A DNA stretch of 64,000 nt from an uncultured Chloroflexia bacterium (GTDB lineage Bacteria > Chloroflexota > Limnocylindria > Limnocylindrales > CSP1-4): NCBI GenBank assembly GCA_963731995.1, contig CAVSXV010000004.1:576973-640972 (forward strand), given 5' to 3'. The notes beneath the pieces were generated by a model. That model made no database searches, had not been told where the DNA came from, and saw only the letters and a program-made list of their open reading frames with translations. Positions 9,757 to 63,576 of the stretch are shown piece by piece. Numbering within the stretch: position 1 is the stretch's first letter; the number at the start of each line of letters is the position of its first letter. A program made the translations under genes and the position numbers.

Positions 9757-10935
9757 ATGCAGGTAGCAGAACGCATCGGCCGGCTGGGCACTGAGTCGGC
9801 GCTGTCGACCGGGGCGCGGGTACGCGAGCTCCGTGCTGCGGGGCGGGACATCATCGCGCTCCACATCGGCGAGCCTGACTTCGACACGCCCGAGCATGTC
9901 ATCGAGGCAGCTCGCAAGGCCCTCGCCGAGGGCCACACCCACTACGCACCACCACTGGGCCTCGACGCTTTCCGTGAAGCGATCGCGGCCGACACCGCCG
10001 CCCGCCTCGGCGTGCGCGTGGAGCCGGGGCGGGTGGTCGTCACGCCCGGCGCCAAGCCGGTCCTGGGTTACGCCTTGATGGCCCTCGTGGACCCGGGTGA
10101 CGAGGTCATCGTGCCCGACCCGGGCTTCCCCATCTACGCCTCGATGGTGCGCTTCGCGGGCGGGGTGCCGGTGCCCATCCCGCTGCGTGCTGAGCTCGAC
10201 TACCGGATCGACCTCGACGAGCTGCGATCGATGGTCTCGCCGCGCACACGCGTGCTCATCGTCAACAGCCCCAGCAACCCCACCGGTGGGATGCTCACAC
10301 GCTCCGACCTCGAAGGTCTGGCCTCGATCGCGCTGGCCCATGACCTCGTCGTCCTGAGCGATGAGATCTACTCGCGCCTGGTGTACGAGGGCGAGCATCA
10401 TTCGCTGCTGCAGATCGAGGGCATGGCCGAGCGGACGGTCGTCCTCGACGGGCTCTCCAAGACCTACGCCATGACCGGCTGGCGCCTCGGTTGGGGCGTG
10501 GTACCCCCGGCATTGGTGGAGCCGTTCGAGCTCCAGATCATCAACACGGTCACCTGTACTGCAGCCTATGCCCAGCTGGCTGGAGCGGCCGCCTTGACCG
10601 GCCCCCAGGAGCCGGCCGCGGCGATGCTGGCCGAGTTCCATGAGCGTCGCCGCCTGGTCGTCGACGGGCTTGATCGCCTGCCGGGCGTCCGCGCGACCAT
10701 GCCCGCAGGTGCCTTCTACGCGTTCCCCGACGTGAGTAGGACCGGCCTCGATGGCGCGACCTTCGCCCGGCGGATGCTCGAAGAGGCCGGTGTGAGCATG
10801 ACCGCCGGCACCGACTTCGGGCAGGTCGCCATCGACCATGTGCGCATCTCGTACGCCAACTCGCAGGCGGTCCTGGCCGTCGCGCTCGAACGCATCGCCG
10901 CGTTCCTCGAGGCCGAACGCCTCGCTAGCCGCTGA
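9757..10935 (+). CDS. class I pyridoxal-phosphate-dependent (aspartate-type) aminotransferase
   Basis: 'IVNSPSNPTGG' and 'LDGLSKTYAMTGWRLGW' (PLP-lysine motif) are present. Length is 392 aa. Confidence 0.85.
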   Translation: MQVAERIGRLGTESALSTGARVRELRAAGRDIIALHIGEPDFDTPEHVIEAARKALAEGHTHYAPPLGLDAFREAIAADTAARLGVRVEPGRVVVTPGAKPVLGYALMALVDPGDEVIVPDPGFPIYASMVRFAGGVPVPIPLRAELDYRIDLDELRSMVSPRTRVLIVNSPSNPTGGMLTRSDLEGLASIALAHDLVVLSDEIYSRLVYEGEHHSLLQIEGMAERTVVLDGLSKTYAMTGWRLGWGVVPPALVEPFELQIINTVTCTAAYAQLAGAAALTGPQEPAAAMLAEFHERRRLVVDGLDRLPGVRATMPAGAFYAFPDVSRTGLDGATFARRMLEEAGVSMTAGTDFGQVAIDHVRISYANSQAVLAVALERIAAFLEAERLASR

Positions 10936-11443
10936 GCGCTTCGAGGATGTCTCCCACGACCGCCTCGATCCCCGACTCGTCGGTGTCGATGGTCAGGCTC
11001 GCCAGCTCTCGGTAGATCCCGTCGCGCTCCGCGTGGCGCGCTTCCAGCCAGGTGAGGTCCGTGGCGTCGTCGCGGCGGCCGTGGCCCGCGCCGATCCGGG
11101 CTCGCAGTGTGTCGGGCTGAGCACGCAGGTAGACCACCATCGGCGTTGCCCGCAGCAGCGCCACCGAGTCTGGGTCGGTGGCCACCCAGGCCGCGGCTGC
11201 GGCGATGAGCGGGGGAGGGACACCCAGGGCGTATCGCAGCGCGTCGGCTTCGGCGGCATGCAGCGCGTCCTCGCCGTCGGTGGCAGCGATCCGTTCGGGC
11301 GCGCGCCCGGCCACGGTCCGTACGAGCTCGTCGTTGTCCATGTAGCGCCAGCCGGTGCGTGCGGCCAGCGCACGGCCCACGGTCGTCTTGCCCGAGCCCA
11401 TCATGCCCAAGAGTACGACGGTGGCGGGTCTGATCGGTAGCAT
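10925..11443 (-). CDS. aroK: shikimate kinase
   Basis: P-loop 'VLLGMMGSGKTTVGRALA' followed by 'YMDNDELV'. Size is 172 aa. Confidence 0.8.
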   Translation of the reverse strand: MLPIRPATVVLLGMMGSGKTTVGRALAARTGWRYMDNDELVRTVAGRAPERIAATDGEDALHAAEADALRYALGVPPPLIAAAAAWVATDPDSVALLRATPMVVYLRAQPDTLRARIGAGHGRRDDATDLTWLEARHAERDGIYRELASLTIDTDESGIEAVVGDILEALSG

Positions 11444-11509
11444 CAGCGCAACTCTACGGCGTTCGGGCCTGGTGGTCGGTACGCCGGCGCGACCTCGTAG
11501 ACTGTCGGC

Positions 11510-11845
11510 GTGCTCATCATCCGTCTCGCCGGGCTCTTCTTCGCCTTCATCCAGATCTCGCTCGTGCTGCGCCTGGTGCTGCCCTTCGTGGAGGTGCCCG
11601 AGGCGCTTCTCGAGTACGTGCCGGCCCTGCTCGACGTGACCGACGTGTGGCTGCTGCCGGTCGACGTCATCGGCGAGCGCTTCGAGATCACCGGCGTTGC
11701 GGAGGACCTGGCCGCGGTCGGCGATGCCTCCGTCACCGGTCCTGAGGAGTTCGAGCCGCTGGTCCTCGCGGCCATGCTCTTCTGGGGCGTGGTCGCCTGG
11801 TTCTCGCTCTTCGTGCTGCGGCTGATCTTCCGGCCGGCCGGGTAA
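11510..11845 (+). CDS. small membrane protein, YggT-like
   Basis: GTG start. Two hydrophobic segments are present ('LFFAFIQISLVLRLVLPFV', 'LAAMLFWGVVAWFSLFVLRLIF'). The family call is weak. Confidence 0.45.
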   Translation: MLIIRLAGLFFAFIQISLVLRLVLPFVEVPEALLEYVPALLDVTDVWLLPVDVIGERFEITGVAEDLAAVGDASVTGPEEFEPLVLAAMLFWGVVAWFSLFVLRLIFRPAG

Positions 11846-11941
11846 GGCGCGGCGCAGGCCGCTGTTCGGCGCTTGGTCAGGGACGGAGCGGTACCTTCGG
11901 GTACGGTCTCGTGCGGTGGCGGAACCGTAGGCTCATCGGTG

Positions 11942-13471
11942 ATGGCCCAGCACGAGATGCCGGCCGCGTCTGCCGAGTCTGCCGACGCCCGCCAAGCCGA
12001 CCCCAGCGACCAGCCTCTCGCGAGCCCTCGCTCGTCACGCTGGGCCATCTCACGCGGCTCGTTGGTCGCTTTCATGGCGGTGCTCCTGCCAGCCGCGGCC
12101 TCTCTGCTGGCGCCCGTGCTCACCGAGGACATCGCCTACCACTTGCGCTCAGGCGCGCACATGCTCGAGACCCGTGCGCTGCTCGACGCGGACCTCTTCA
12201 CCTTCACCGTCGCGGGCGATGCCTGGCTGAACCAGCAATGGGCCGCGAGCGTCCTCTTCGCGGCGGTCTACGACGTCGCTGGCTGGCTGGGCCTGCTGAT
12301 CCTGCGCTCGGTGCTCATCGGAGCCGCCTTCGGGCTGGTCTACCTCGCCTGTCGGGCCAGCCAGGCCAACCGCATCGTGGCTTCGCTGGTGACCCTCGGT
12401 GCGTTCGTGGTGGCGGCCACCAACCTCGCTCTGCGCTCGCAGCTGTTCGGGGTCGTCTTCTTCGCGGGGGTGCTGGCGATCCTGGCCTGGCGTCGGAAGC
12501 ACCCGTGGCTGCTGGTGCTCATCCCGCTCTTGATGGTGGCCTGGGCCAACACGCATGGCTCGTTCTTCATCGGCTGGGCCGCGATCGGGGTGGCCTTCCT
12601 CGAGGACCTCGTCGCCCGAAGACGGCTGGCCGCCGCGACCTTCGCGGTCGGCGTCCTGAGCGTGCTCGCCACGCTGGTCACGCCGTGGGGCGCGGAGATG
12701 TGGGTCTACGTCGTGGATCTCTCCTCCAACCCCGTCGTCGCTGCTCTCGTGAGCGAGTGGCAGGCTCCCACGCTCGGCTCGGCGACCGGGATCTTCTTCT
12801 TCGCCTCGGTCGCGCTGGTGGTCGGCTTGCTGCTGTATCGCGGTCGCGTCATCTCGTGGCTGCAAGTGCTCTGGCTCGGGGGTCTCGTCCTGCTCAGCCT
12901 GATGGCTGCCCGCAGCGTCGTCTGGTGGGCACTTGGCGCCGCCCCGGTGGTGGCGTTGCTCCTGAGTGGCCTGGAGGTCCGCGGTCACCGGGTCGGCGAT
13001 CCCGCCTACGACGAACCCCGCGGCATCGGCTACACCGCCATCGCCGGGCTGCTCATCGTGCTCACGCTCGCGGTCGTGCCCTTCTACCGCCCGAGCGACC
13101 CGCTCTACGGTCCCGAAGGTGTCGTCCAGCACGCGCCACGCGGGGTGACCGAGGCCCTCGCGGCCGAAGCAGGCCCCGGCGACCGGCTCTACGCTGCCCA
13201 GCGATGGGGTTCGTGGTTGGAGTTCGCGCTTCCCGGGGTGCCGGTGATGGTCGACACGCGCATCGAGCTCTTCGACAGCGAGATCTGGTCCGACTACCTG
13301 GCGGTCGCGAGTGGGCGGTCTGACTGGTCGGAGGTCCTGGAGCGCTGGGGCGTCACTCTCATCGCAGCCGAAGCCGGGAACCAGGACCTGCTCCCGTTCG
13401 TCGAGGCCGATGATCGCTGGCAGCGGGTGCACGCCGACGATGAAGGCGCCGTCTACCGGAAGGTGCGGTAG
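11942..13471 (+). CDS. polytopic integral membrane protein (GT-C-like glycosyltransferase fold suspected)
   Basis: More than 10 hydrophobic helices are followed by a soluble C-terminal domain. 'DIAYHLRSGAHMLETRALLDADLFTFTVAGDAWLNQQW' sits near the N-terminus. ORF 11873..13471; ATG 11942 chosen. Confidence 0.55.
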   Translation: MAQHEMPAASAESADARQADPSDQPLASPRSSRWAISRGSLVAFMAVLLPAAASLLAPVLTEDIAYHLRSGAHMLETRALLDADLFTFTVAGDAWLNQQWAASVLFAAVYDVAGWLGLLILRSVLIGAAFGLVYLACRASQANRIVASLVTLGAFVVAATNLALRSQLFGVVFFAGVLAILAWRRKHPWLLVLIPLLMVAWANTHGSFFIGWAAIGVAFLEDLVARRRLAAATFAVGVLSVLATLVTPWGAEMWVYVVDLSSNPVVAALVSEWQAPTLGSATGIFFFASVALVVGLLLYRGRVISWLQVLWLGGLVLLSLMAARSVVWWALGAAPVVALLLSGLEVRGHRVGDPAYDEPRGIGYTAIAGLLIVLTLAVVPFYRPSDPLYGPEGVVQHAPRGVTEALAAEAGPGDRLYAAQRWGSWLEFALPGVPVMVDTRIELFDSEIWSDYLAVASGRSDWSEVLERWGVTLIAAEAGNQDLLPFVEADDRWQRVHADDEGAVYRKVR

Positions 13472-13534
13472 GGAGTCTCCGCTCGCACCAGGTGCACATG
13501 CCGGGGACCGACTCACCGGGCCCGGCGACCGGAC

Positions 13535-14065
13535 CTAGTTGGCGGCGGACTGGTTCAGGACCTGCTTGAGCTCGGCGTTGTAGGTGCGGCCCGCCATGGT
13601 GCGGCTCAGCCACTCGACGTAGTTGCGGTCATAGGCCGCGACCTGCGAGATCGACCAGCCACGATAGCGACCGAAGGAGAGCACGCTGCCCTTGGCCACC
13701 GGATAGCGCGGCGGCGGACCGGCTTCGCCGTACGAGGCTGAGGCTGGCGTGGGCTCGGCCTTGGGACGGATCGACCACGTACCACCCTCGTACTTCAGGT
13801 TGGTGGCGCCGGGCATCGACTGCCGCTCGTGGCCCACCACCTGCCCGGTCTTGGAGACACCGATGATCTCGTCGTATCGAGCACGCTTCTCGGGGTTCGA
13901 GAGGATGGCGAAGGCCTCGTTGATCTGGGCCATCGTCTCGGAGGCCTCGGGACCAGCGTGGTCGGGGTGAAACTGCTTGGCCAAGGCGCGATAGACCGCG
14001 TTGATCACCTCGAGGGTGGCGGTCGGGTGCAGCATCAGCACTTCATACAGCGTCCGCTCCGTCAT
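13535..14065 (-). CDS. J-domain protein with a DUF3820-like C-terminus
   Basis: The J domain reads 'LYEVLMLHPTATLEVINAVYRALAKQFHPDHAG...EAFAILSNPEKRARYD' (HPD motif). The C-terminal 'FGRYRGWSISQVAAYDRNYVEWL' resembles DUF3820. Confidence 0.75.
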   Translation of the reverse strand: MTERTLYEVLMLHPTATLEVINAVYRALAKQFHPDHAGPEASETMAQINEAFAILSNPEKRARYDEIIGVSKTGQVVGHERQSMPGATNLKYEGGTWSIRPKAEPTPASASYGEAGPPPRYPVAKGSVLSFGRYRGWSISQVAAYDRNYVEWLSRTMAGRTYNAELKQVLNQSAAN

Positions 14066-14216
14066 GTGGTGACTCTAGCGGGCGGAAACGCCCGCTCGTA
14101 CTAACCCTTTCGTCATGACCCCACCGCTCGCTACCCGTACCATCGATACCGGCGCGGCCGCTGGGAGGCTGACGCTCGTTCGCGCGGGCACCACCAGCGA
14201 GAAGCGGGTCACGGCG

Positions 14217-15302
14217 CTAGATGAATGAGGGCGTCGTCACCAGCATCTCGAGGTCGCCACTGATGGTCGTGGCAGCGGTGCCGCCGAGGATCGTGAAGGT
14301 GTCGCCGGCCTTCAGCTCCAACGCTCCGTGCGCGGTTTCGGCCAGGCCTGAGCCCGCGGTCACGATGTTGACCGAATAGGCCCCGGCATAGGGCCAGGCG
14401 ACCGAGCCCTTCACGGTCAGGCGGAACCCCTTGAAGTAGGGATCGCTCTGCGAACCCCAGATGTCGTCAGCGGTCCAACCCTCGGTCTCGTTGCCGGCCA
14501 CGCGCCGAGGCTGTCCGCAGAGTACGCCCAACTCATCGGATGTGACCGCGGCGCTGTCGATGACCTGCAGCATCGTGTCCCAGCCCCGATGCATGTGCGC
14601 GATGTCGGGATCGATGGGGTAGCCCGCGTACTCGGCCATGATGCTGAAGTCGGTCGGCTCCTGTGCTTCGACGAGGAAGACCCCGGCGCCGGTGGCGTGC
14701 AGCAGTCCGGGACGCACGAAGACCGCATCACCGGGCGCCACCTCGACCTCGTTCATGGCCCCGCGCATCGCCTCGGTGTCCTGCGCCTCGATCCAGGCGC
14801 GTACCTGTTCGGCCGAGACATCGTCGCGGAAGCCGAGCCAGACGCGGGGTGACGGTGCGCCCTCGATCTGGCGCGTGGCCGCGATGTACCACGCCTCGGC
14901 CTTGCCGAACTGCGAGTCGAAGATCTGGCGGGCGAGGTCGCGCGTCGGGTGCACGTGCACGGGCAGCCGGGACCCCGCGTCGAGCAGCTTGACCAGCAGC
15001 GCGGTGGTGACGCCATAGCGCTCGACGATCCTCGTGCCCGCGACGTCCCGGGGTCGCTCCTGCAGCAGGTCAGCGATGACGTAGTCCCGGCCACCGACTT
15101 CGACGGTACTGAGGCCTTCGCCTTCGTAGGTGTGCTCGGGGGGATTGATGGCGGGCGTGGTGGAGCCGACCCAGTCCTCGGGGAACATCGTGTCCTCAGG
15201 CGAGGGCAAGCCCCGGAAGCGGTCCATGAGACCGCCGCCCTTGTAGAAGCGGTAGACGCGGTTGGGAGCCAGTCGAAGCGGAAGGTGAAGCAGCTCGTCC
15301 AT
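14217..15302 (-). CDS. manA: type I mannose-6-phosphate isomerase
   Basis: 'LLVKLLDAGSRLPVHVHP', 'GKAEAWYI' and 'PGDAVFVRPGLLHATG' are the metal-binding and cupin motifs of class I PMI. Confidence 0.8.
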   Translation of the reverse strand: MDELLHLPLRLAPNRVYRFYKGGGLMDRFRGLPSPEDTMFPEDWVGSTTPAINPPEHTYEGEGLSTVEVGGRDYVIADLLQERPRDVAGTRIVERYGVTTALLVKLLDAGSRLPVHVHPTRDLARQIFDSQFGKAEAWYIAATRQIEGAPSPRVWLGFRDDVSAEQVRAWIEAQDTEAMRGAMNEVEVAPGDAVFVRPGLLHATGAGVFLVEAQEPTDFSIMAEYAGYPIDPDIAHMHRGWDTMLQVIDSAAVTSDELGVLCGQPRRVAGNETEGWTADDIWGSQSDPYFKGFRLTVKGSVAWPYAGAYSVNIVTAGSGLAETAHGALELKAGDTFTILGGTAATTISGDLEMLVTTPSFI

Positions 15303-15366
15303 GACGACACGATGCCATAGGCGAATGGCCTGCGAGAGGCCGGAGCGCCCGGATCGCGTAGAGGGC

Positions 15367-16008
15367 CTAGGACTCGCTGTCCGCTGTCGCCTCGGGCGCT
15401 TGGTCAGCCGCTACGGCGTCGTCTTCAGCCGCGACCGGCTCGAAGAACTCGACGGACTCGGCCACGGTCACCCAGAACGGCTCGTCGGCCTGCCTCGAGG
15501 CACACGTCAGGAGGTAGCGTGCGAAGGTGCCGTCCTCGGCGGGTGGGCCGTCGAAGAGGTACATCCCCCGGATGCGGCCTGTCGAGGAATCGAAGATCTC
15601 GATGCGGTAGGCAGGGCCCGCGGGGATCTCCGTCTCGGCCACGACCATCGCAGCCTCGGCGCTCTCGCTCTGCTGGAGGTAGTTGACGTAGGCGTAGGCG
15701 TGCTCTTCGAGCGCCGAGGTCATGTCCAGGTAGGCATCGACGTCACACCACATGCCGTCGCCACCGTTGGCCAGCATGACCGTGGTCTCCATGATCGGGT
15801 CGCCGGCGGCGTCGGTGAGGGCCGAGATGCGTTCGCCCTCGAGCAAGCTCAGGTGCCAGTCGGCAGGAACGTCGACCGCGAACCCGAGCTCGGCCGACTC
15901 GGCACGCTGGGTCGCCGCATCGGGCGCGGGAGTCTCGTCGGCAGCCAGGGCCGGGGTAGCTCCAAGGAACAGGGTCATGGCCAGAGCGGTCGGGATGGTT
16001 CGTCGCAT
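15367..16008 (-). CDS. secreted hypothetical protein
   Basis: Signal peptide 'MRRTIPTALAMTLFLGATPALAADE'. The mature part is acidic. No family was recognised. Confidence 0.6.
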   Translation of the reverse strand: MRRTIPTALAMTLFLGATPALAADETPAPDAATQRAESAELGFAVDVPADWHLSLLEGERISALTDAAGDPIMETTVMLANGGDGMWCDVDAYLDMTSALEEHAYAYVNYLQQSESAEAAMVVAETEIPAGPAYRIEIFDSSTGRIRGMYLFDGPPAEDGTFARYLLTCASRQADEPFWVTVAESVEFFEPVAAEDDAVAADQAPEATADSES

Positions 16009-16106
16009 CGTGATATCCCTTCTAGGCGTGGGCTCGTATCAACCGTCGACGCTAGCCTGCCACAACCACGGCATCGACCTCGTAGCGTGGCGCTACCATC
16101 GGCGCA

Positions 16107-16523
16107 ATGCGCCCATTCCGAGCCTTCTTCGCCGCGCTGCCTCGCCTCCTGGCCGATGAGTCGTTCCGCGCGGCCTTCGCGATGCTGGTCGCACTGATGG
16201 CCGTGGGCACCGCGTTCTACATGATCGTCGAGGGCTGGGGTCTGATCGACAGTCTCTACTTTGCCGTCATCGCGGCCTCCACCGTGGGCTTCGGGGACTA
16301 CGTGCCGACCACGGACCTGGGGAAGTTGTTCACCATCGTCTACGTGCTCGCGGGCGTCGGCCTGCTGGTGATGATCCTGGGGCGGATCGCGACCGGCATG
16401 GTCGACGTCCATCTCGAGGAGCGGGCCGACGCCGAGCCACGCCCGCCGCGGCGCCGTGTTCGGGCACGTCGGCGGGACACTGGCTCGTCTGACGACAGCG
16501 CGGGCACGACCGACGACGACTGA
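16107..16523 (+). CDS. minimal two-TM potassium channel (KcsA-like pore)
   Basis: Selectivity filter 'ASTVGFGDY' lies between two TM helices. The C-terminal tail is Arg-rich and acidic. No RCK domain is present. Confidence 0.75.
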   Translation: MRPFRAFFAALPRLLADESFRAAFAMLVALMAVGTAFYMIVEGWGLIDSLYFAVIAASTVGFGDYVPTTDLGKLFTIVYVLAGVGLLVMILGRIATGMVDVHLEERADAEPRPPRRRVRARRRDTGSSDDSAGTTDDD

Positions 16524-20639: not shown

Positions 20640-20715
20640 GGGCCGGTAGCTCAGCGGTCAGAGCAGGGGACTTTTAATCCCTGTGTCCTGGGTTCGAATC
20701 CCAGCCGGCTCACCA
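20640..20715 (+). tRNA. tRNA-Lys (anticodon UUU)
   Basis: It folds by hand: acceptor GGGCCGG/CCGGCTC (one G-U pair), D arm gctc/gagc, anticodon arm gggga-cTTTTaa-tccct, T arm ctggg-ttcgaat-cccag, and an encoded CCA. Confidence 0.9.
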
Positions 20716-21554: not shown

Positions 21555-21929
21555 ATGCTCGATGAGACCCGGATTGACCGCTATCTCACCGCGGTGCGGC
21601 TCGTCAAGACGCGCCCGATCGCGTCGCAGCTCTGCGAGGGCGGTCACGTCCTGGTCAACGGCCGGGCTGCTAAGCCATCGACGAGGGTCCGGGTCGGCGA
21701 TCGCGTCGAGGCGCGCATCGCGGATCGCGACCGGATCATCGAGGTCGTCCGGGTGATCGAGGCGCGGGTAGGCGCGCCCGTCGCCGGCACGTGCTACATC
21801 GACCACAGCCCGCCGCCGCCCACCGAGACGCTGCCGCCAGGTATGGCGTGGGCACGTGGTGCCGGCCGGCCGAGCAAGCGCTTGCGTCGCGAGCTGGACC
21901 GGATGCGACGGGGCGGCGGCTCGTCTTGA
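21555..21929 (+). CDS. S4-domain RNA-binding protein (Hsp15-like)
   Basis: 'RIDRYLTAVRLVKTRPIASQLCEGGHVLVNGRAAKPSTRVRVGDRVE' is a canonical S4 motif. The tail is basic ('GRPSKRLRRELDRMRR'). Confidence 0.75.
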   Translation: MLDETRIDRYLTAVRLVKTRPIASQLCEGGHVLVNGRAAKPSTRVRVGDRVEARIADRDRIIEVVRVIEARVGAPVAGTCYIDHSPPPPTETLPPGMAWARGAGRPSKRLRRELDRMRRGGGSS

Positions 21930-35340: not shown

Positions 35341-36078
35341 ATGAGAAGTCGGATCCTCGCCGATCGCGCTCAAACCCCCTGCTATGAGCGCACCCTGGCG
35401 CCCGTCCTGGGAGCGCTGATCGTCGCCGTCGCGCTCATCGTGGGGGCACTCCCGGTCGCCGCTGGATCCGCCCTCTCGCCCTGGAGTGGTGGCGTCGACC
35501 TCTACCGGCCGGGCGTGTTCAGCACCCAGAAGACGTGGCACTGGTGCACCGCGGCGGACGTCCAGATCATGCGCAACATCGTCCACCACGAGACGAACCA
35601 CAAGCGAGCCCAGCAGCACCGGTTCTTCGACCACATGCGGGCCCACGATCGCTACCCGATCCCGGTACGTGACGGCGTCGACCCGGCCGGCTGGACAGCC
35701 GGCTTGCGCCACTTCGTCGACTCGCGCTATCGCCTGGTAGCAAGCCGCAGCTTCAAGGCCGCGCTGCGCTCCGCGGTACGCAACCTACGGCGCACCAACC
35801 TTCCGGTGGGGATCACCGTGGCGCACGGCAACCATGCATGGGTGCTGACCGGCTTTGAAGCCACCGCCGACCCCGCCAGGACCCACCAGTTCAGAGTCAC
35901 GAGCGTCCGTGTAACCGGGCCCTTGTGGGGCCTCCAGAGCCGTAGTTACGGCTACGACATGCATCCCGACAAGGAGCTCACGCGGAGGCAGTTCAAGCGC
36001 TTCTTCACACCATGGCACTACGCGCGGACGCGGATGGCCTGGGAGGGCCGCTGGGTATCGGTGCAACCGATCCCGTAG
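35341..36078 (+). CDS. membrane-anchored or secreted protein with papain-like cysteine peptidase motifs (C39-like)
   Basis: An N-terminal hydrophobic anchor is present. 'STQKTWHWCTAADVQIM' fits Gln...Cys and 'GNHAWVLTGF' fits His, with papain-fold spacing. Confidence 0.4.
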   Translation: MRSRILADRAQTPCYERTLAPVLGALIVAVALIVGALPVAAGSALSPWSGGVDLYRPGVFSTQKTWHWCTAADVQIMRNIVHHETNHKRAQQHRFFDHMRAHDRYPIPVRDGVDPAGWTAGLRHFVDSRYRLVASRSFKAALRSAVRNLRRTNLPVGITVAHGNHAWVLTGFEATADPARTHQFRVTSVRVTGPLWGLQSRSYGYDMHPDKELTRRQFKRFFTPWHYARTRMAWEGRWVSVQPIP

Positions 36079-36388: not shown

Positions 36389-37078
36389 CTACGGGTCCAG
36401 TGCTCCACTGGTCGCCGTCCTCGCTCCCCGCCAGAAGGCCATCACCGCAGCCGCCGCTGTCAACACCATTCCCAACCAGAACAGCGGCCAGGCGGACCAC
36501 GGGGACGTGTCCCCGGCGACGACGCGGTCAGCGTCGACCAGGAAGCTCAGGATGACGAGGCCGCCGCCAGCTAGTGCTATCACCATGCCCCTCCGCCCGA
36601 TGGCGATTTCGCGACCGGCCCGCAGCCGGGCCGCAGCGGCCAGCCCGAAGCCAACGAGGGCAGTGCTCACGGCCATCGGCGCCCAGACCGGTCCGATCCA
36701 GGTCATGGGCACGAGGAAGAGGACGTCCCAGGCATCGAGCGCCGGGGGCCAATCGATGGTCAGCCACAGGCCAGCGTAGTAGACGATGTCCCAGGTCCCG
36801 AACACGACGGCCGCCCAAGCGAGACGCTCGAGCCAGCTGCGGCCGGCGAGCCAGCCGACGGCGGCGATCATGACGAGCGTGGCCAGCTCGCGTGCGATCT
36901 CGATGCCGGCGTAGGCGTCGAACTCCCCAGGCTGGGCCACGGGAACGGGGACGGCGGCATCCAAGCCGAGCGCGGCTCGCAGGTAGACGACGACCGTTGC
37001 CTCGAGGTAGCCCATCGCGATGCCGAAGGCGAGGACCACGATGGCCGTCGCGAGGAACGAGCTCTGCTGTCGGCTCAT
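36389..37078 (-). CDS. polytopic membrane protein, unknown family
   Basis: About 7 hydrophobic helices ('FLATAIVVLAFGIAMGYLEATVVVYLR...'). ATG 37078 was chosen inside ORF 36389..37129. Confidence 0.55.
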   Translation of the reverse strand: MSRQQSSFLATAIVVLAFGIAMGYLEATVVVYLRAALGLDAAVPVPVAQPGEFDAYAGIEIARELATLVMIAAVGWLAGRSWLERLAWAAVVFGTWDIVYYAGLWLTIDWPPALDAWDVLFLVPMTWIGPVWAPMAVSTALVGFGLAAAARLRAGREIAIGRRGMVIALAGGGLVILSFLVDADRVVAGDTSPWSAWPLFWLGMVLTAAAAVMAFWRGARTATSGALDP

Positions 37079-37556
37079 GGCTCGTTCTGACAGGTGAGCA
37101 TCTGGATTCACGGTCGGTCGCTCCCCCATGGCACGGGTGTCAAGGCCGCAGGAGCCGCGTGCGGGCTCGAGAGAGGACTGCTGAACGCCCGGCGAGTGCC
37201 ATCGTCACATCACGCTGCAAGGCCTCATCGTAACGGCCCAGGACGGACACGATCAGGGTGTCCTCTCCGACACCATGCGTCCATCGTGGTTGGTGACGTG
37301 CGCGCCTACCGCTTCCGGCCGAGGCCGACGATGACTGTGACCGGGAGTTCCGTGACGTTCTGGCCGTAGGTCGCCTGGGCGACGAGGCGCTCATCTCGAC
37401 TCCGGCTCGTGCCGGACGACGTCGACGTCCTTGCCGCGCTCGAGGATCGATGCCCCGACCCGGCTGGGTGGACGACCCGGGTTGATCAGGCCGCGCGACC
37501 ACCGACAGTCCACCTTATCCTTGTCTCATCGGCTTCTGGCGTGAACGGGGGGTTCC

Positions 37557-39212
37557 ATGAAGCAAGCGATCGTGGCGGTGCTTGGCGTCGTGCTGATGCT
37601 GCCGACAGGGGTGGCGGCACAGTCAGCCGACGACATGAGCAACCTGTGGGCACAGGTTCCAGCTGGCATGGAGTACAGCTGCCAGGAGCTTGGATACGAC
37701 ACGTTCAAGCGCGTGGTCGAACCGTCCATCGCCGCGCTTCAGTGCTTCTACGAGGGCGGCCCGAACAAGATCGATGATGTCGGGCTCTTCCTCTTCGACT
37801 CCAAGTCTGAACTGCGCGCATTCTGGAAGGCCCGCAAGGAGCAGCGCCTCGGACGGGCGACCCGCGGCGACTGCACCAGGAAGAACGGGGCCGGCGTCAT
37901 GGACATTCCTGGCGGCGAGCTCATCTGCTACGAGAGCTCGGGCCAGGCCAGGACCGCTGGATCAACGAGGACGACCTGCTCTACGGTGCCTTGGACACCA
38001 GCTGGGCCAAGATCGCCTATGCCTACGACTGGTGGGTCAAGAACATCGGTTCGGCAACAAAGCCGGAGGCGGTCGGTGGTGCGGTGGCCGCCCTCCGAGT
38101 CCGAGGCCGCGGCTATCTATCAGGTCCGGGCGGAGCTGATAGAGGCCCTGGTCGAGACCAAGACCGAGTGGGCGAAGTACACGGCCTACCGCGACGAGCC
38201 CAGTGGTACATCGTCGAAGACGGCTGGGGCTATGTCGATGTCGACCGACTGGCCGACTACGTCCCCATCGCGCGCTATGCCAAGAACACCCGCTGCCTTC
38301 GAGGTGTTGAGCCGGCCAGCCGTTCTGGTTGGACTCGTCACTCGTCGCATCGGTGTCGCTGCTCATCGACGAGGCGAGCTCGGGCGCCGACGTTCCGCGA
38401 GCCGCGGAGAAGCTGGCGAAGCGCCTCTCCCAGACCGCGGACGAGAAGGCGCCGACCGTGCGTCCGTACCTGCGGATGGGTCGTGAAGAGACTGAGCTCA
38501 CATCACGGCCATCGATACGCTGGATGCGGTGATCGAAGGGCTAGGGTTTGGCCGTGCCCGGCCCGTCGCCGACGAGGTCGTCGCGGAGCCCCTACCGAGC
38601 CGGAGCACGGCCCGGGCGGGGCCATGGCTGCCTTCCGCCAGGAGCTGGTGGCCGACCTCGCCTACATCGGCGGTCGCATCCAGAACTGCCGCGTCTGGAT
38701 CGACGATCCGCGACACGCACGTTGCCTATGATCCGGACATCGCCGGTTTCGACCTGGAACGACTGTCCGACTTCGAGAGCGCCGTCGAGTTCATTCGCGA
38801 CCACGACTGGGCGTGGGCGATCTTCGATGCGCCGGCCGCTCAAGGCAGTGACCTCGACATCGCCACACAGCTCTATCTCGAAACGCTCAACCCAGTCCCC
38901 GCGACCTCGCGGAGATCGACCGGGGCCGTGATCGAGGCGAACCGTCAGGCCTCCGGCAAGAAGCGGAGCTACTGCTCGGGGCCCCTCGGGGAGGGCAAGC
39001 GCTATCGGGACGCGCTCAAAGCCTCCTTGGCACTCTCGAACGAGATCACGGCGGCCCTCGGTCTGGTCGTGGAGCCGACCTCGCCACCGGTAGAGATCCC
39101 GCCGCCGACCTCGCAGCCAGCCACACCGGCCCCGTCGCCCACACCGGCACCCACCCCTGAGCCGACGCCGCCGTCCGAGCCGGCCGAGTCCTCCCGCCGA
39201 ACCCCTTCCTGA
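37557..39212 (+). pseudogene. secreted protein gene broken by at least 8 frame shifts (first gene of the secreted-protein array)
   Basis: Signal peptide 'MKQAIVAVLGVVLMLPTGVAAQ'. A sensible translation hops between all three frames near 37.95, 38.08, 38.20, 38.29, 38.33, 38.49, 38.60 and 38.71 kb. It ends in a Pro-rich tail 'PPPTSQPATPAPSPTPAPTPEPTPPSEP'. Confidence 0.55.
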
Positions 39213-39228
39213 ACGCGTAGGAGGAGTC

Positions 39229-40515
39229 ATGCACAAGACCAGCTCGACCGTCCTCGGCCTGGCGCTCGCAGCCGTCACGGCACTACCTGCCGTGGCCCAG
39301 GAGGACGGCACGCTCGACGACCAGTCCATCGCTGCGCTGCTGCAGGTCCACCGCGACACCGGCGCCGCCCTTGTCGACGTCCAGCGCGAGCTCGACGAGA
39401 TCCCTCTGCGTATCGAGAGCGATGACTGGCTGGTGTTCCCCAGGCGCGATGGCGACACCATCGAGGTGAACCTGGACGATGTCAAGGGACTCCTGCCGGC
39501 GGTGCAGATCACGTTGGCGCTCGCGCCCGAGGCCAAGCGGGCCGTACTCGATGGGCTCGAGGACGCCGACCACAGCCTGTGGGTCGCAGCCACCCTGGTG
39601 GACGCGCTGGAGGGCGGCATCGAGGGGCAGTCGCCCGACGAGATCGTGTCCCACATCAAGGGGTTCTACCGCCAGACGCCCGAGTACAAGCGCACCACTT
39701 ACGCGGACCACGTGGCCGCGCTCGAGGAGGAGCGCGAACACCTTGACCAGCTCTTCATCGAGACCTTCGAGTGGCTCGATGAGTACGGTGTCGAGGTCGT
39801 GGCCGAGCCGGACCCGATACCGACTCCCGCTCCCGAGCCCGACACCACCAGCGAGCCGATCCAGTACGACGCCCTCGAGGGTCTGATCGGCTGTTGGGGC
39901 AATGAGCTCGGCTGCTACGGGCCCACACTCGAAGCCGGTGCTGACCTCGCGCTGGAGGCCGTAACACCGGACACGGGCGATGGCGCGCTGACCGGGTGCT
40001 GGTGGACACCTCTCGGCATCGGCGGCATGTGGGCGCGCGTCGAACAGTACGGCGACTACTTCACCGGTGGCACGGTCATCAGCTGGCAGTGGGGGACCGA
40101 GACCGGGCGCGAATACGCCATCGGCTGGCTCGAGGGCGACACCCGCAACTACCAGCCTGAAGGCTACTTCTACGGCACGGGGCCCTGGGAGTCGGTCCAC
40201 ACCTGCGATGAGTCCCGCGGAGGCAGCAGCGACTGGGGCAAGTTCTACGCCTGGCTGCACGAGGACGGATCGTTCTGGCAACTGTGCGGCAAGGGCCACG
40301 CCGGGGAGCTGGGCGAGCTCAGCGACCCGTTCGGCAACGACGTCTCCTGGGCGTACACCGGCCATTTCTGGATGGAGCCGACGTCCGCGGCCACGTGCGA
40401 GGAGAAGTTCGAGGAGGCCGCAGCCTACCTCCAGGCCGGGTCATCGACAGCTGCGACAACGACGCCCGGCGAGGCGGCGGAGACTCCGGCCTCCGATCCG
40501 TTCGCCGACCGATAG
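39229..40515 (+). CDS. secreted paralog family protein P1 (unknown function)
   Basis: AGGAGGAG precedes the ATG. A signal peptide is followed by a helical ~180-aa module, a Pro-rich linker, 'IQYDALEGL' and a Cys/Trp/Gly-rich C-terminal domain. The 428-aa ORF is intact. Confidence 0.7.
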   Translation: MHKTSSTVLGLALAAVTALPAVAQEDGTLDDQSIAALLQVHRDTGAALVDVQRELDEIPLRIESDDWLVFPRRDGDTIEVNLDDVKGLLPAVQITLALAPEAKRAVLDGLEDADHSLWVAATLVDALEGGIEGQSPDEIVSHIKGFYRQTPEYKRTTYADHVAALEEEREHLDQLFIETFEWLDEYGVEVVAEPDPIPTPAPEPDTTSEPIQYDALEGLIGCWGNELGCYGPTLEAGADLALEAVTPDTGDGALTGCWWTPLGIGGMWARVEQYGDYFTGGTVISWQWGTETGREYAIGWLEGDTRNYQPEGYFYGTGPWESVHTCDESRGGSSDWGKFYAWLHEDGSFWQLCGKGHAGELGELSDPFGNDVSWAYTGHFWMEPTSAATCEEKFEEAAAYLQAGSSTAATTTPGEAAETPASDPFADR

Positions 40516-40527
40516 CCGAGGACCAAC

Positions 40528-41680
40528 ATGATTCGGAAGCTGACCCCGCTGTTCGCCATCGTCCTGACTGTCGTGTTCGCCGCCCCAACTGCAGCGCAGG
40601 CAGAAGAGTCCGGCCGCGATGTGCTGAATGACATCGAGGCCACGGTCTCCGGGGTGCAGGCCGAGCTCGCGGCCATCGACCAGCGTGTCGCCAGCGACGA
40701 CTGGATGGTCTTCGAAATTTGCCAGGCAGGGGCTGGTGCAGGTCGACCTCGGCGGGCTGGACCAGTGGATCCCCGGCGTGATCTCGCTGCGCCGGGACGC
40801 CGCTGGTTCACTGCCTGCAGATGGCCTCGACCCGCTCGCGGGCACCATGCCGGAGTTGTGGCAGGCATCGGTGCTGCTCGCGGATGCGCCCGACGAGGTG
40901 CTGGAGGCTGGAGCGGAAGCGACCCGTGCCTGGCTGCGCGACCGGTTCGGCCACCTGCAAACCACCGAGCGCAAGGACGCCCTCTACGAAGCCGAGCGTG
41001 CCCGGCTCCTCGACGATCTGGATGCTTTGCGGCAGAGCCGCGAGTTCTTCATGTCCGAGACCCCCCGGACCGAGACCGCTGACACCGAGAGTGCGGCGCA
41101 AAGCGAGACCCTCCAGGTCGAGCAGTGGTGTCGCGAGTTCGCGCTCGGCGAAACCCTCATGTCCGAGGATGGGTCGGTCGAGTTGGGTCCGCAGATGCCA
41201 CCCATCGAGGAGCTGCCCGACTGGTGCCGCGATGCGCTGCTGGCGCGGTTGACCGGCGCTGACGGGCTCACCGCGACGCCCCCGCCAAACGATGAGGTGG
41301 TGGCGCAGGAGCCGGTACGACGCAGTGAGGACCCGCTCGAGTGGGAGGGTGACGAGGCCATCGACCATGGCCGCTGGGATGGCGTCTGGGAGTACTGGGG
41401 CTACCCGGGCCTGACCCTGGTGCAGGTGGGCGGCAACGTCTTCGGCACCTACCAGGCCGGCGACGGCTGGATGAAGCTCGTCGTGGTCGACGAGCACACG
41501 CTCATCGGGCACTGGTACGAAGGCGAGCACCCGGCCGTCTGCGATCGTGAGCGGGACGGCACCGTCCACTGGGGCTCGCTGGAGATGCGTTTCAACGATG
41601 ACTTCAGCGCGTACAGCGGGTCCTTTGGAGACTGTGACAGCCTGACTGACTTCGCGATCGAAGGGAGTCGTGCCCGATGA
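40528..41680 (+). CDS. secreted paralog family protein P2 (one frame break near 40715-40722)
   Basis: A signal peptide is followed by an N-module alignable to P1 and P3 ('SDDWMVFE...GLVQVDLGGLDQWIPGV'). ORFs 40528..41082 and 40628..41680 join at a 'ttt' run. Confidence 0.6.
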
Positions 41681-42884
41681 TCCGCATCCTGCGCTCCCTG
41701 CTGGCGCTGCTCGTGATGGTGGCGCTGACGGTGCCGATCGTGCTCGGGGCCCAGGACGAGGACCTCCAACAGCTCCAGCGACTCCGGCGCGCGACCCTGG
41801 AGGAGCTTGCCGACGTCGGACGCCAGCTCGATGACCTGACCGCTCGGTCGCGTGACGCCGATTGGGTCATCGTGCGGGCCGGGGATGGCTCCTACGTCCA
41901 GGTCGACCTCAAGCGTGTCGACGAGCTGGTTCCATGGGTGCAGATGGCACTCCAGGATCGCGGCGCGGCACCCGCGCTGCTCAAGAAGCTCGAGCAGTAC
42001 ATCCCCTACGCGTCGCTGGCCCTGCTGCTCCCTGACTCGGAGGTCTCGCCACAGGTCAAGCCGTATCTCGATGACCTGCAGCTGCTCGTCGCGGGAGACC
42101 TCGAGTCGATCGACTCGGACAGGATCCGTGACGCGATACGGGCGATCTTCAAGGGCCGGGAGGCACGCATGGCGCAGCACTACGCGGACTTGACGGTGGA
42201 GCTGGAGGAGCAGCGACAGACGCTGGAGATCCTGCTCCAGTTCCTCGACGCGGACATCGAGGCTCGCGGGGGCTTGGTATCACCCGCACCTTCGCTCGAG
42301 CCGACGTGGGAGCTCAGCCTTCCTCCGACCCAGATCGAGGAACTGCCGTCGCCAAGCCCTGCCACGACGCCAAGCCCTGCCTCCACGCCGCCACCTTCCC
42401 TTGACGCCGAACTTCCCCCGACGCCCAGCCGTCGTGAGCCCGACGTCTCCCCCGAGCCCGTGCTCTCCCCCAGCCCACGTCGGGCATGGAGAGCGACGGC
42501 ATCGAATACGACGCGCTGAAGGGCTTGACGAACTGCGGAGAAGGCGACCCCGACTGTGCCGAGCCGACGCCGGTCGCGTGTTCGGAGGCGGACATGTGGT
42601 GCGATGACACGGCCATCGGCCCCTCCCTGTCACCGAGCCTCGCACCTTCGCCGTTCCCGAGCCTTGATCCGGCTGCGTCCGATGACGGCGGCCGGGCCGC
42701 CATCGTCTGCGAAGGCTGGTTGGAACACGCGCTCGAGTCTTCGTACACGAAATTCACCCCGGAGCAGATCGGTGCGTGCTTTGAGGAGTGCGAGACGTGG
42801 ATGTCGTGGCACGCGAGCTTCGGGGATGAACTGCCCAGCGACTGCGCCGAGATCGACCCGGACACGATTCCGCAGCCCTCCTAG
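41677..42884 (+). CDS. secreted paralog family protein P3 (one frame break near 42465-42485)
   Basis: The ATG overlaps the P2 stop (ATGA). A signal peptide is followed by 'DADWVIVRAGDGSYVQVDLKRVDELVPWVQ', a Pro/Ser linker, and then 'IEYDALKGL' and a Cys-rich domain in the frame of ORF 42486..42884. Confidence 0.6.
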
Positions 42885-63501: not shown

Positions 63502-63576
63502 GGCGAGGTGGAGCAGTGGTAGCTCATCGGGCTCATAACCCGAAGGTCGGCGGTTCGAATCCGTCCCTCGCAACCA
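63502..63576 (+). tRNA. tRNA-Met (CAU), initiator type
   Basis: It folds by hand. The anticodon arm tcggg-cTCATaa-cccga has three consecutive G-C pairs next to the loop. Position 1:72 is unpaired (G1/A72). The T arm is ggcgg-ttcgaat-ccgtc and CCA is encoded. The arm is near-identical to the classical bacterial tRNA-fMet arm. Confidence 0.85.

Follow-up and report, generated by a model that had tools for sequence, protein, structure and literature searches.

A lineage-restricted operon for predicted secreted modular proteins in an uncultured Limnocylindria-type Chloroflexota bacterium

Gene layout and domain structure of the array

An array of four successive plus-strand genes, here named G1 to G4, was analyzed at positions 37557-42884 of a 64,000-nt stretch of contig CAVSXV010000004.1 (assembly GCA_963731995.1, uncultured Chloroflexia bacterium from soil or fresh water). 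The whole stretch, hereafter the window, has a G+C content of about 68%, and the four coding regions were delimited using a frame plot of G+C at third codon positions together with three-frame translations. G1 occupies 37557-39212 in the raw frame and 37557-39220 in the corrected frame (556 residues after frame correction). It is followed by G2 (39229-40515, 428 residues), which is the sole intact open reading frame (ORF) of the four, by G3 (40528-41680, 383 residues after removal of one base) and by G4 (41677-42884, 402 residues after addition of one C). G2 and G3 are separated by 12 nt, and G3 and G4 overlap in the sequence ATGA. Between G1 and G2 the raw frame leaves a gap of 16 nt, which frame correction shortens to 8 nt, because the true G1 stop codon is the TAG at 39218-39220, following ...NPFLNA. 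A GGAGGAG Shine-Dalgarno sequence lies inside this gap, and GGAGG-like Shine-Dalgarno sequences are located 5' of G2, G3 and G4. The array is a single operon with translational coupling of its four genes. The original prediction had described an operon-like array of four plus-strand genes with 16-nt and 12-nt gaps and one ATGA overlap; this packing was confirmed, with the first gap shortened to 8 nt, and the tight spacing with Shine-Dalgarno sequences supports the operon-like reading.

The 427-nt intergenic region at 37130-37556 (no strand assigned), between a divergent membrane-protein gene and G1, is the presumed promoter region. A promoter and terminator scan inside the array yielded no sigma-70 consensus and no intrinsic terminator except for one match at chance level. 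Rfam gave no family for the array or its vicinity, and these scans revealed nothing regulatory there.

The translations were inspected against the criteria for Sec export and signal peptidase I cleavage. All four products have a basic n-region, a hydrophobic core (h-region) of 10-15 residues and an AxA-type site with small residues at -3 and -1; the predicted cleavage sites of G1 to G4 are VAA/Q, AVA/Q, AQA/E and LGA/Q, respectively. Lipoproteins were rejected, the lipobox cysteine being absent. The mature chains are acidic (isoelectric point 4.1-4.5) and contain 6, 6, 4 and 8 cysteines in G1, G2, G3 and G4, respectively, with none in the helical module that the four proteins share. The even cysteine counts fit an oxidizing compartment. 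The signal peptides that had been claimed for all four genes were thus present on inspection, and the description of the products as secreted is supported by these peptides together with the even cysteine numbers and the acidic mature chains. From these features the array is predicted to encode Sec-exported, disulfide-bonded, strongly acidic modular proteins.

All features of the four genes lie on the plus strand. In G1 the signal peptide (37557-37619) is followed by an N-terminal four-cysteine domain (about 37620-38070), a first copy of the helical module (about 38077-38600; identified with a hidden Markov model (HMM) of the module and with hhalign), a divergent second copy (about 38643-39125; weaker HMM match), a Pro/Thr linker (about 39126-39190) and a conserved C-terminal peptide, ...PPNPFLNA, which ends at the stop codon (39191-39220; family alignment). 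Owing to indels, these sub-coordinates are accurate to about 7 nt. The linker is consistent with the Pro-rich tail that had been noted for this gene. G2 consists of a signal peptide (39229-39297), the helical N-module (39298-39819; AlphaFold2), a Pro/Thr linker (39820-39858), the cassette IQYDALEGLIGCWGNELGC (39859-39915), a beta-barrel (about 39949-40332; barrel HMM) with a C-terminal helix after it, and a tail that ends in ...ETPASDPFADR before the stop (40426-40515). In G3 the signal peptide (40528-40602) and N-module (40603-41062) precede a Thr/Glu-rich spacer with a two-cysteine segment (41063-41332) and a beta-barrel (41327-41677; AlphaFold2 and barrel HMM). G4 has a signal peptide (41677-41751), an N-module (41752-42276), a long Pro/Ser/Thr linker (42277-42500), two cassettes, IEYDALKGLTNCGEGDPDC (42501-42557) and CSEADMWC (42579-42602), and a four-cysteine C-terminal domain (about 42693-42881). 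A Pro/Thr/Ser linker had been proposed for each of the last three genes; this applies to G2 and G4 and not to G3, whose spacer is Thr/Glu-rich rather than Pro-rich.

The short cassettes of the family include IEYDALKGLTxCxxxDxxC, CxEADMWC and CxxDGENAIDxLC, and their order differs between proteins; short C-x6-C and C-x10-C loops are among the types, and a four-cysteine domain cassette has the pattern EAPYTxLSxxQIGACFxxCExWxSWHxSFGDxLPSxC. The previously noted match of IQYDALEGL with IEYDALKGL directly after the linker is real, and this cassette recurs across the family. Some members of the G1 family, the window's included, have the N-terminal four-cysteine domain. Following a long Pro/Thr linker, every complete G1 family member retrieved ends in ETPxP(D/N)PFAD(L). 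The tail of the subgroup to which the window's G1 belongs is ...NPFL(D/N)A, and the window's G2 carries a tail of the same kind (ETPASDPFADR). In at least 10 orthologues ...P(D/N)PFAD(L) is the extreme C-terminus with nothing after it. A sorting signal of the sortase, exosortase or archaeosortase type was rejected because no transmembrane helix with a basic tail follows the motif.

About 13 corrections of 1-2 nt were required in G1 between 37953 and 39192, and were made using as a guide the related locus L001 (a 41-kb contig of about 93% nucleotide identity). G3 has one extra base near 40716, in an AAATTT run, and G4 lacks at least one base in a C5 run near 42468, inside the Pro/Ser/Thr linker. 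In a five-way DNA alignment the small G1 indels were all unique to the window. Intact orthologues are present on L001 and in further relatives, fully open arrays occur on JGI and Logan assembly contigs, and orthologues on short-read contigs are intact. L001 has frameshifts of its own elsewhere, in an MFS transporter gene and at the 3' end of G2. The ratio of nonsynonymous to synonymous substitution rates (dN/dS; Nei-Gojobori) was 0.2-0.4 in every pairwise comparison of each of the four genes. Pairs with the window gave 0.28-0.31 for G1 and pairs without it 0.30-0.41, and the dS of G1 equals that of the intact G2.

Decay over a time sufficient for 13 indels should have left relaxed substitutions in G1, which are not seen; the frameshifts in the window are therefore most likely consensus errors of a long-read assembly, with a small chance that G1 was inactivated very recently. 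A decaying, non-functional cluster, made up of pseudogenes with genuine frameshifts, was rejected on the substitution pattern and is considered very unlikely. The clustering of the G1 indels, the presence of at least one indel in each of G3 and G4, and the intact ORFs of the flanking MFS, aldolase, LLM and RpoD genes would agree with decay, but dN/dS between the window's G1 and its orthologues is the same as or below that of the other pairs, G1 and G2 have the same dS, the shifts in G3 and G4 fall in homopolymer runs, and the short-read orthologues are intact. Moreover, the assemblies of the closest relatives are named in long-read style and have frameshifts in other genes. The indel hot spot at 37953-39192 adjoins the 1.3-kb G2, which is free of indels, and the reading frames of the flanking genes are likewise open; of the G1 indels, some but not all lie in homopolymers. 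Low coverage or strain mixing in the long-read consensus is a possible source of this hot spot.

The shared helical module and the beta-barrel

The modules of G2, G3 and G4 were compared by BLASTP with composition-based statistics, by Smith-Waterman alignment against 500 composition-preserving shuffles, and by hhalign with alignments of orthologues. BLASTP gave 30% identity over 163 residues (E = 3e-8) for G2 with G4 and 28% over 146 residues (E = 4e-4) for G2 with G3. The Smith-Waterman z scores were 16.1 for G2-G4, 11.4 for G2-G3 and 3.5 for G3-G4, and the corresponding hhalign probabilities were 98.9% (E = 1.7e-17), 97.1% (E = 5.6e-11) and 87.7% (E = 3.4e-6). The similarity that had been reported among these three N-modules is thus above chance and is not compositional; it stays significant once composition is corrected for, loss of significance at that step having been named in advance as grounds for abandoning it. 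The limitation of the module to the last three genes did not survive. Residues 167-355 of G1 pair with residues 16-206 of G2 (hhalign, E = 1.5e-5), and an HMM built from 20 diverse modules matches G1 orthologues at E = 4e-9 to 1e-11, with a weaker second match downstream. G1 probably holds the module twice, as one clear and one divergent copy. In the rest of the 64-kb window the HMM located no additional copies.

The module is about 160 residues long. The AlphaFold2 model of the G2 copy (predicted local distance difference test score (pLDDT) 60-92) consists of a 33-residue helix, a beta-hairpin, four short helices and a 35-residue C-terminal helix. The hairpin (W67-P71 and T77-N81) coincides with the best-conserved motif, SDDWxVF...GxxVxVDL. 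Foldseek matches of this model in PDB and BFVD were generic coiled-coil hairpins only.

Iterative HMM searching of the collected proteins identified residues 246-359 of G2 and 269-383 of G3 as the same domain of about 110 residues, which is present in one or two copies in most relatives. In an alignment of 26 copies, G19, C72, W82 and C103 are invariant, and W21, G40 and G61 are nearly so. The AlphaFold2 model of the G3 C-terminal domain has eight strands (pLDDT 87.6, predicted template modeling score 0.77) that are predicted to form a closed up-and-down barrel, as in calycins, and the N-terminal GxW motif of that group is represented by the invariant G19 and the nearly invariant W21. The top 25 PDB matches in Foldseek were all small up-and-down barrels, including GrlR, CRABP2/FABP, the N-barrel of PvdP, the C-barrel of NHBA, potempin E, nitrophorin and TbpB, with probabilities of up to 0.99, template modeling (TM) scores of 0.45-0.57 and identities of 7-15%. 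A PDB profile search gave weak matches to zebavidin (E = 0.13) and FABP (E = 0.96), both over the GxW region. Matches to VHH antibodies, the only ones below E = 1e-3 (E = 2e-4), were judged spurious, reflecting a coincidence of the 'C...WG' motif. The barrel is predicted from the model to belong to the calycin-like fold class, which is not an assignment to a calycin family.

The C-terminal domains had been described as divergent. Those of G2 and G3 are homologous barrels, and the parts called variable are largely one barrel family; G4 of the window is without a barrel, and its orthologue in the related locus L004 has one appended.

Distribution of the family and variation among related loci

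Word-indexed searches recovered 4 proteins with G2 and 11 with G1, the window's own ORF among the latter, and two of the matches were named 'Candidatus Limnocylindrales bacterium' by their sources. A word-indexed profile search returned four close fragments and missed known members, so that the family size given here rests on exhaustive HMMER searching. The module profile, run against 1.84 billion cluster representatives, gave 36 matches at E <= 1e-3, 25 of them at E <= 1e-10. Two of the weakest of the 36 are repetitive proteins that do not belong to the family; in all other full-length members the module begins at residue 24-42, directly after the signal peptide, and the family members are 230-733 residues long. 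The named relatives are from metagenome-assembled genomes (MAGs) of Limnocylindrales or Chloroflexia. A species-level genome collection contained one match, in an 'uncultured Chloroflexia bacterium' MAG, and two metagenome scans gave no match.

Pfam-A and NCBIfam were searched with raw and corrected G1 to G4, with 10 distant relatives, with 20 N-modules and with 26 barrels, and none gave a match at the cut-off; the best stray matches (E = 0.006-0.03) did not reach it. PDB sequence-profile searches using the module, the barrel and the G1 family returned nothing credible, and no account of such proteins was found in the Limnocylindria literature. The original prediction of an unrecognized family therefore stands: the check for a match to a characterized family, on which it had been made to depend, gave nothing significant, with no Pfam, NCBIfam or PDB sequence match for any part, and the search across genomes that it had proposed gave the 36 module matches and the recurrence of the array described below. 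By these searches the family appears new to curated databases and restricted to one lineage, having so far been seen solely in Limnocylindria-type Chloroflexota.

Eight related loci have the same array with its cassettes in shuffled arrangement. L001 contains G1-G2-G3-G4 and then, behind a remnant of the G2 tail, G3-G4 once more; L003 contains G1-G2; L004 contains G1 (with the tail of G2, G2 itself being missing), G3, and G4 with an extra barrel; and L007 contains a 199-residue mini-G1 and three paralogues. G1-like, G3-like and G4-like genes make up L008, and in L009 and L002 a G1-like gene (bracketed in our assignment), a G3-like and a G2-like gene are followed by a gene for a 400-residue secreted protein. 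L005 has a G1-like gene alone, and L006 has G1 and a lone barrel ORF. A G1-headed array is found in L001, L003, L004, L007, L008 and L009, among them short-read contigs whose ORFs are intact. By this comparison, what is conserved is an array with a G1-type gene at its head.

The sequences of these loci suggest that array content changes by duplication, by deletion and by recombination in the linkers. In L001, near-identical G3-G4 copies occupy 11302-13637 and 14103-16267, and a remnant of the G2 3' end (...CEEKFEEAAAYLQGGSSSAATTTPDEAAETPASDPFADR, then stop) lies at about 13990-14095, which indicates a segmental duplication of the unit G2 tail-G3-G4. The two L001 G4 copies (395 and 338 residues) differ in linker length. 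L004 lacks G2, and its G1 orthologue (10001-11644) ends in the tail of G2 (GGSSTAVTTTPGEAAETPASDPFADR), an arrangement that resembles the outcome of a deletion in which Pro/Thr linkers recombined. The L004 G4 orthologue has gained a C-terminal barrel, and the barrel also occurs as a lone 135-residue ORF in L006. The pattern had been called that of a diversifying system, and this is accurate for architecture, as the loci differ in the order of cassettes, in domains gained or lost, in segmental duplication and in a linker-to-linker fusion; it does not extend to the orthologues themselves, whose dN/dS of 0.2-0.4 indicates purifying and not positive selection.

Several neighboring genes were recorded. 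A secreted protein of 400-414 residues (DPDLMATAELPDG...) without a Pfam family is encoded directly 3' of the array in three loci (L002, 1769-2971; L007, 12598-13842; L009, 3536-4405), in L002 and L007 with an adenylate/guanylate cyclase-AAA_16 gene after it; tblastn did not detect this protein in the window. A gene for an extracytoplasmic function (ECF) sigma factor lies upstream of the array in L001 (4649-6562) and L006 (3508-4831), and none lies beside the window's array. The L001 sigma gene adjoins two genes that share a C-terminal domain (GAW.G...YGWL.GE..Y.G...F......G.IWPG.PPP), one of which may encode an anti-sigma factor. An S4-domain gene (window 21555-21905; L001 47-421; 94% amino acid identity) lies upstream of G1 at a distance of 16 kb in the window and of 8 kb in L001, and the genes in between are not the same, so the region upstream of the array is variable between close relatives.

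In the window, a 245-residue protein with an N-terminal hydrophobic segment is encoded upstream of the array (35341-36078, plus strand), and the divergent gene next to G1 (36389-37129, minus strand) encodes a 246-residue multi-pass membrane protein; neither has a Pfam match. The flanks of the array otherwise encode DUF429, membrane, MFS transporter, class II aldolase, LLM oxidoreductase and RpoD proteins and are uninformative. The sole Rfam or ARAGORN features of the window are tRNA-Lys(ttt) at 20640-20715 and tRNA-Met(cat) at 63502-63576.

Proposed function and alternative explanations

The reading that we tentatively prefer is that this modular operon encodes an apparatus for binding or capture, displayed on the cell surface, in which shuffling of cassettes at the linkers alters the repertoire. 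The helical modules would hold the paralogues together, attach them to the envelope, or do both, by analogy with SLH and CWB2 proteins. Pro/Thr spacers would keep the cassettes at a distance from the cell, the barrels could be the heads that bind small ligands or peptides, and G1 might serve as a scaffold or anchor by means of its tail. A bolder version, in which the ETPxP(D/N)PFADL peptide of G1 (and here also of G2) is a docking or sorting signal for the module or the barrels, in the manner of cohesin and dockerin, within a so far unknown Chloroflexota surface assembly system, seems unlikely.

Several observations weigh against the proposed binding apparatus. No characterized homologue points to a function, and the genomic neighbors vary between loci and give no functional clue. 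The structural neighbors of the G2 module model were not significant (best E = 0.4 in PDB and 0.055 in BFVD), and the barrel matches, at Foldseek E-values of 0.03-0.5, speak for fold class only and not for homology. The conserved tail was seen only on family members within about 170 kb of related DNA and so may not be a general sorting signal. The concentration of indels in G1, about 13 as compared with 0 in G2, would be unusual if sequencing errors fell at random.

The conserved N-module with exchangeable C-terminal cassettes, the tandem paralogues and the recombination in linkers would also suit secreted antagonistic effectors, either of a polymorphic-toxin-like kind or as a multi-component alpha-helical pore-forming toxin such as Hbl, Nhe or AhlABC, and the helical bundle with its beta-hairpin loosely resembles the ClyA family. 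This explanation is nevertheless improbable. A ClyA-like toxin was rejected, as the module has about 160 residues versus at least 300 for ClyA-type proteins, the hairpin WLVFPRRDGDTIEVN is charged (DDW..RRDGD..E.N) and is not a hydrophobic beta-tongue, and ClyA appeared in the Foldseek list at E = 2.7, with structural matches overall non-significant. A polymorphic toxin was rejected as well: no small immunity-like ORF stands between the genes, which abut or overlap, or follows them, and the C-terminal cassettes comprise one barrel family and Cys loops with no match to a toxin or enzyme family. The dN/dS of 0.2-0.4 also argues against effectors. Extracytoplasmic regulators or inhibitors, with barrels that inhibit secreted enzymes or sense envelope signals together with ECF sigma/anti-sigma pairs, are judged equally improbable. 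Potempin E, whose barrel type inhibits proteases, and GrlR are among the top barrel matches, and the arrays of L001 and L006 have ECF sigma genes 2-6 kb upstream; however, there is no such gene beside the array in the window, L004, L005, L007, L008 or L009, no protease gene is consistently adjacent, and the barrel matches hold at the level of fold only. It is even more doubtful, and in our opinion highly improbable, that the products are precursor polyproteins cut in the Pro/Thr spacers, so that Cys-loop peptides, free barrels or both are released as signals or public goods. The short conserved Cys-loop cassettes that stand between long linkers in variable order, and the stand-alone 135-residue barrel ORF of L006, could be read in this way, but L006 is an indel-rich assembly and its lone ORF may therefore be an artefact. 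Furthermore, no conserved processing protease or maturation gene is located nearby, no dibasic or repeated cleavage motif lies beside the cassettes, and Pro/Thr linkers are normally protease-resistant spacers.

Known systems were compared with the array. SLH-domain proteins and the CWB2 'Cwp' family of Clostridioides difficile (slpA locus) are cell-wall proteins of monoderm bacteria that share an anchoring module. The present proteins resemble them in the Sec signal peptide, the shared module combined with varied domains, the clustering of paralogues and the projecting spacers. They differ in that no family member has a Pfam match to PF00395 or PF04122, in that the module is a single helical bundle with a beta-hairpin instead of three repeats, and in that the family is tiny and confined to one lineage. 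The barrels are like calycins in their eight antiparallel up-and-down strands, N-terminal GxW and length of about 110 residues, and like NHBA and TbpB in their predicted extracellular, surface-exposed context. Unlike calycins, none of the 26 copies is matched by a Pfam lipocalin, avidin or DUF model, and they have an invariant Cys-Cys pair and a 'C.E.R.GT..WG' motif of their own and occur in tandem behind Pro/Thr linkers.

The tripartite alpha-helical pore-forming toxins Hbl, Nhe and AhlABC/SmhABC belong to the ClyA superfamily and are secreted paralogues encoded in one operon. The array shares with them three or four secreted paralogues in one operon and a helical bundle with a beta-hairpin, and is set apart by a module of half the size, a polar or charged hairpin, additional linkers and barrels and a non-significant structural match. 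The polymorphic toxin, LXG and Rhs systems likewise combine a conserved N-terminal part with exchangeable C-terminal parts and cassette recombination. The present proteins, unlike these, have signals for Sec export and not for type VII or type VI secretion, are without immunity genes or toxin domains, and have binding-type barrels and Cys loops as their C-terminal parts. The nearest functional analogues would be the SLH and CWB2 families, whose sequence features are absent here, and surface proteins with calycin barrels. The overall design is familiar for surface or secreted proteins; the family is new to the databases.

Limnocylindria-type Chloroflexota are uncultured and are abundant in soils and fresh waters, and to our knowledge almost nothing is known of their cell surface. 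The locus defines a conserved C-terminal peptide and two domain families for which Pfam and NCBIfam have no entry, namely a helical module placed after the signal peptide and a predicted disulfide-bonded, calycin-like barrel, and these parts are reshuffled at Pro/Thr linkers between close relatives. It represents a well-delimited family with a tentatively proposed function rather than a demonstrated new mechanism. If the barrels are binding heads carried on helical stalks at the surface, the family would offer a handle on substrate capture or attachment in these bacteria, and a source of compact new barrel scaffolds.

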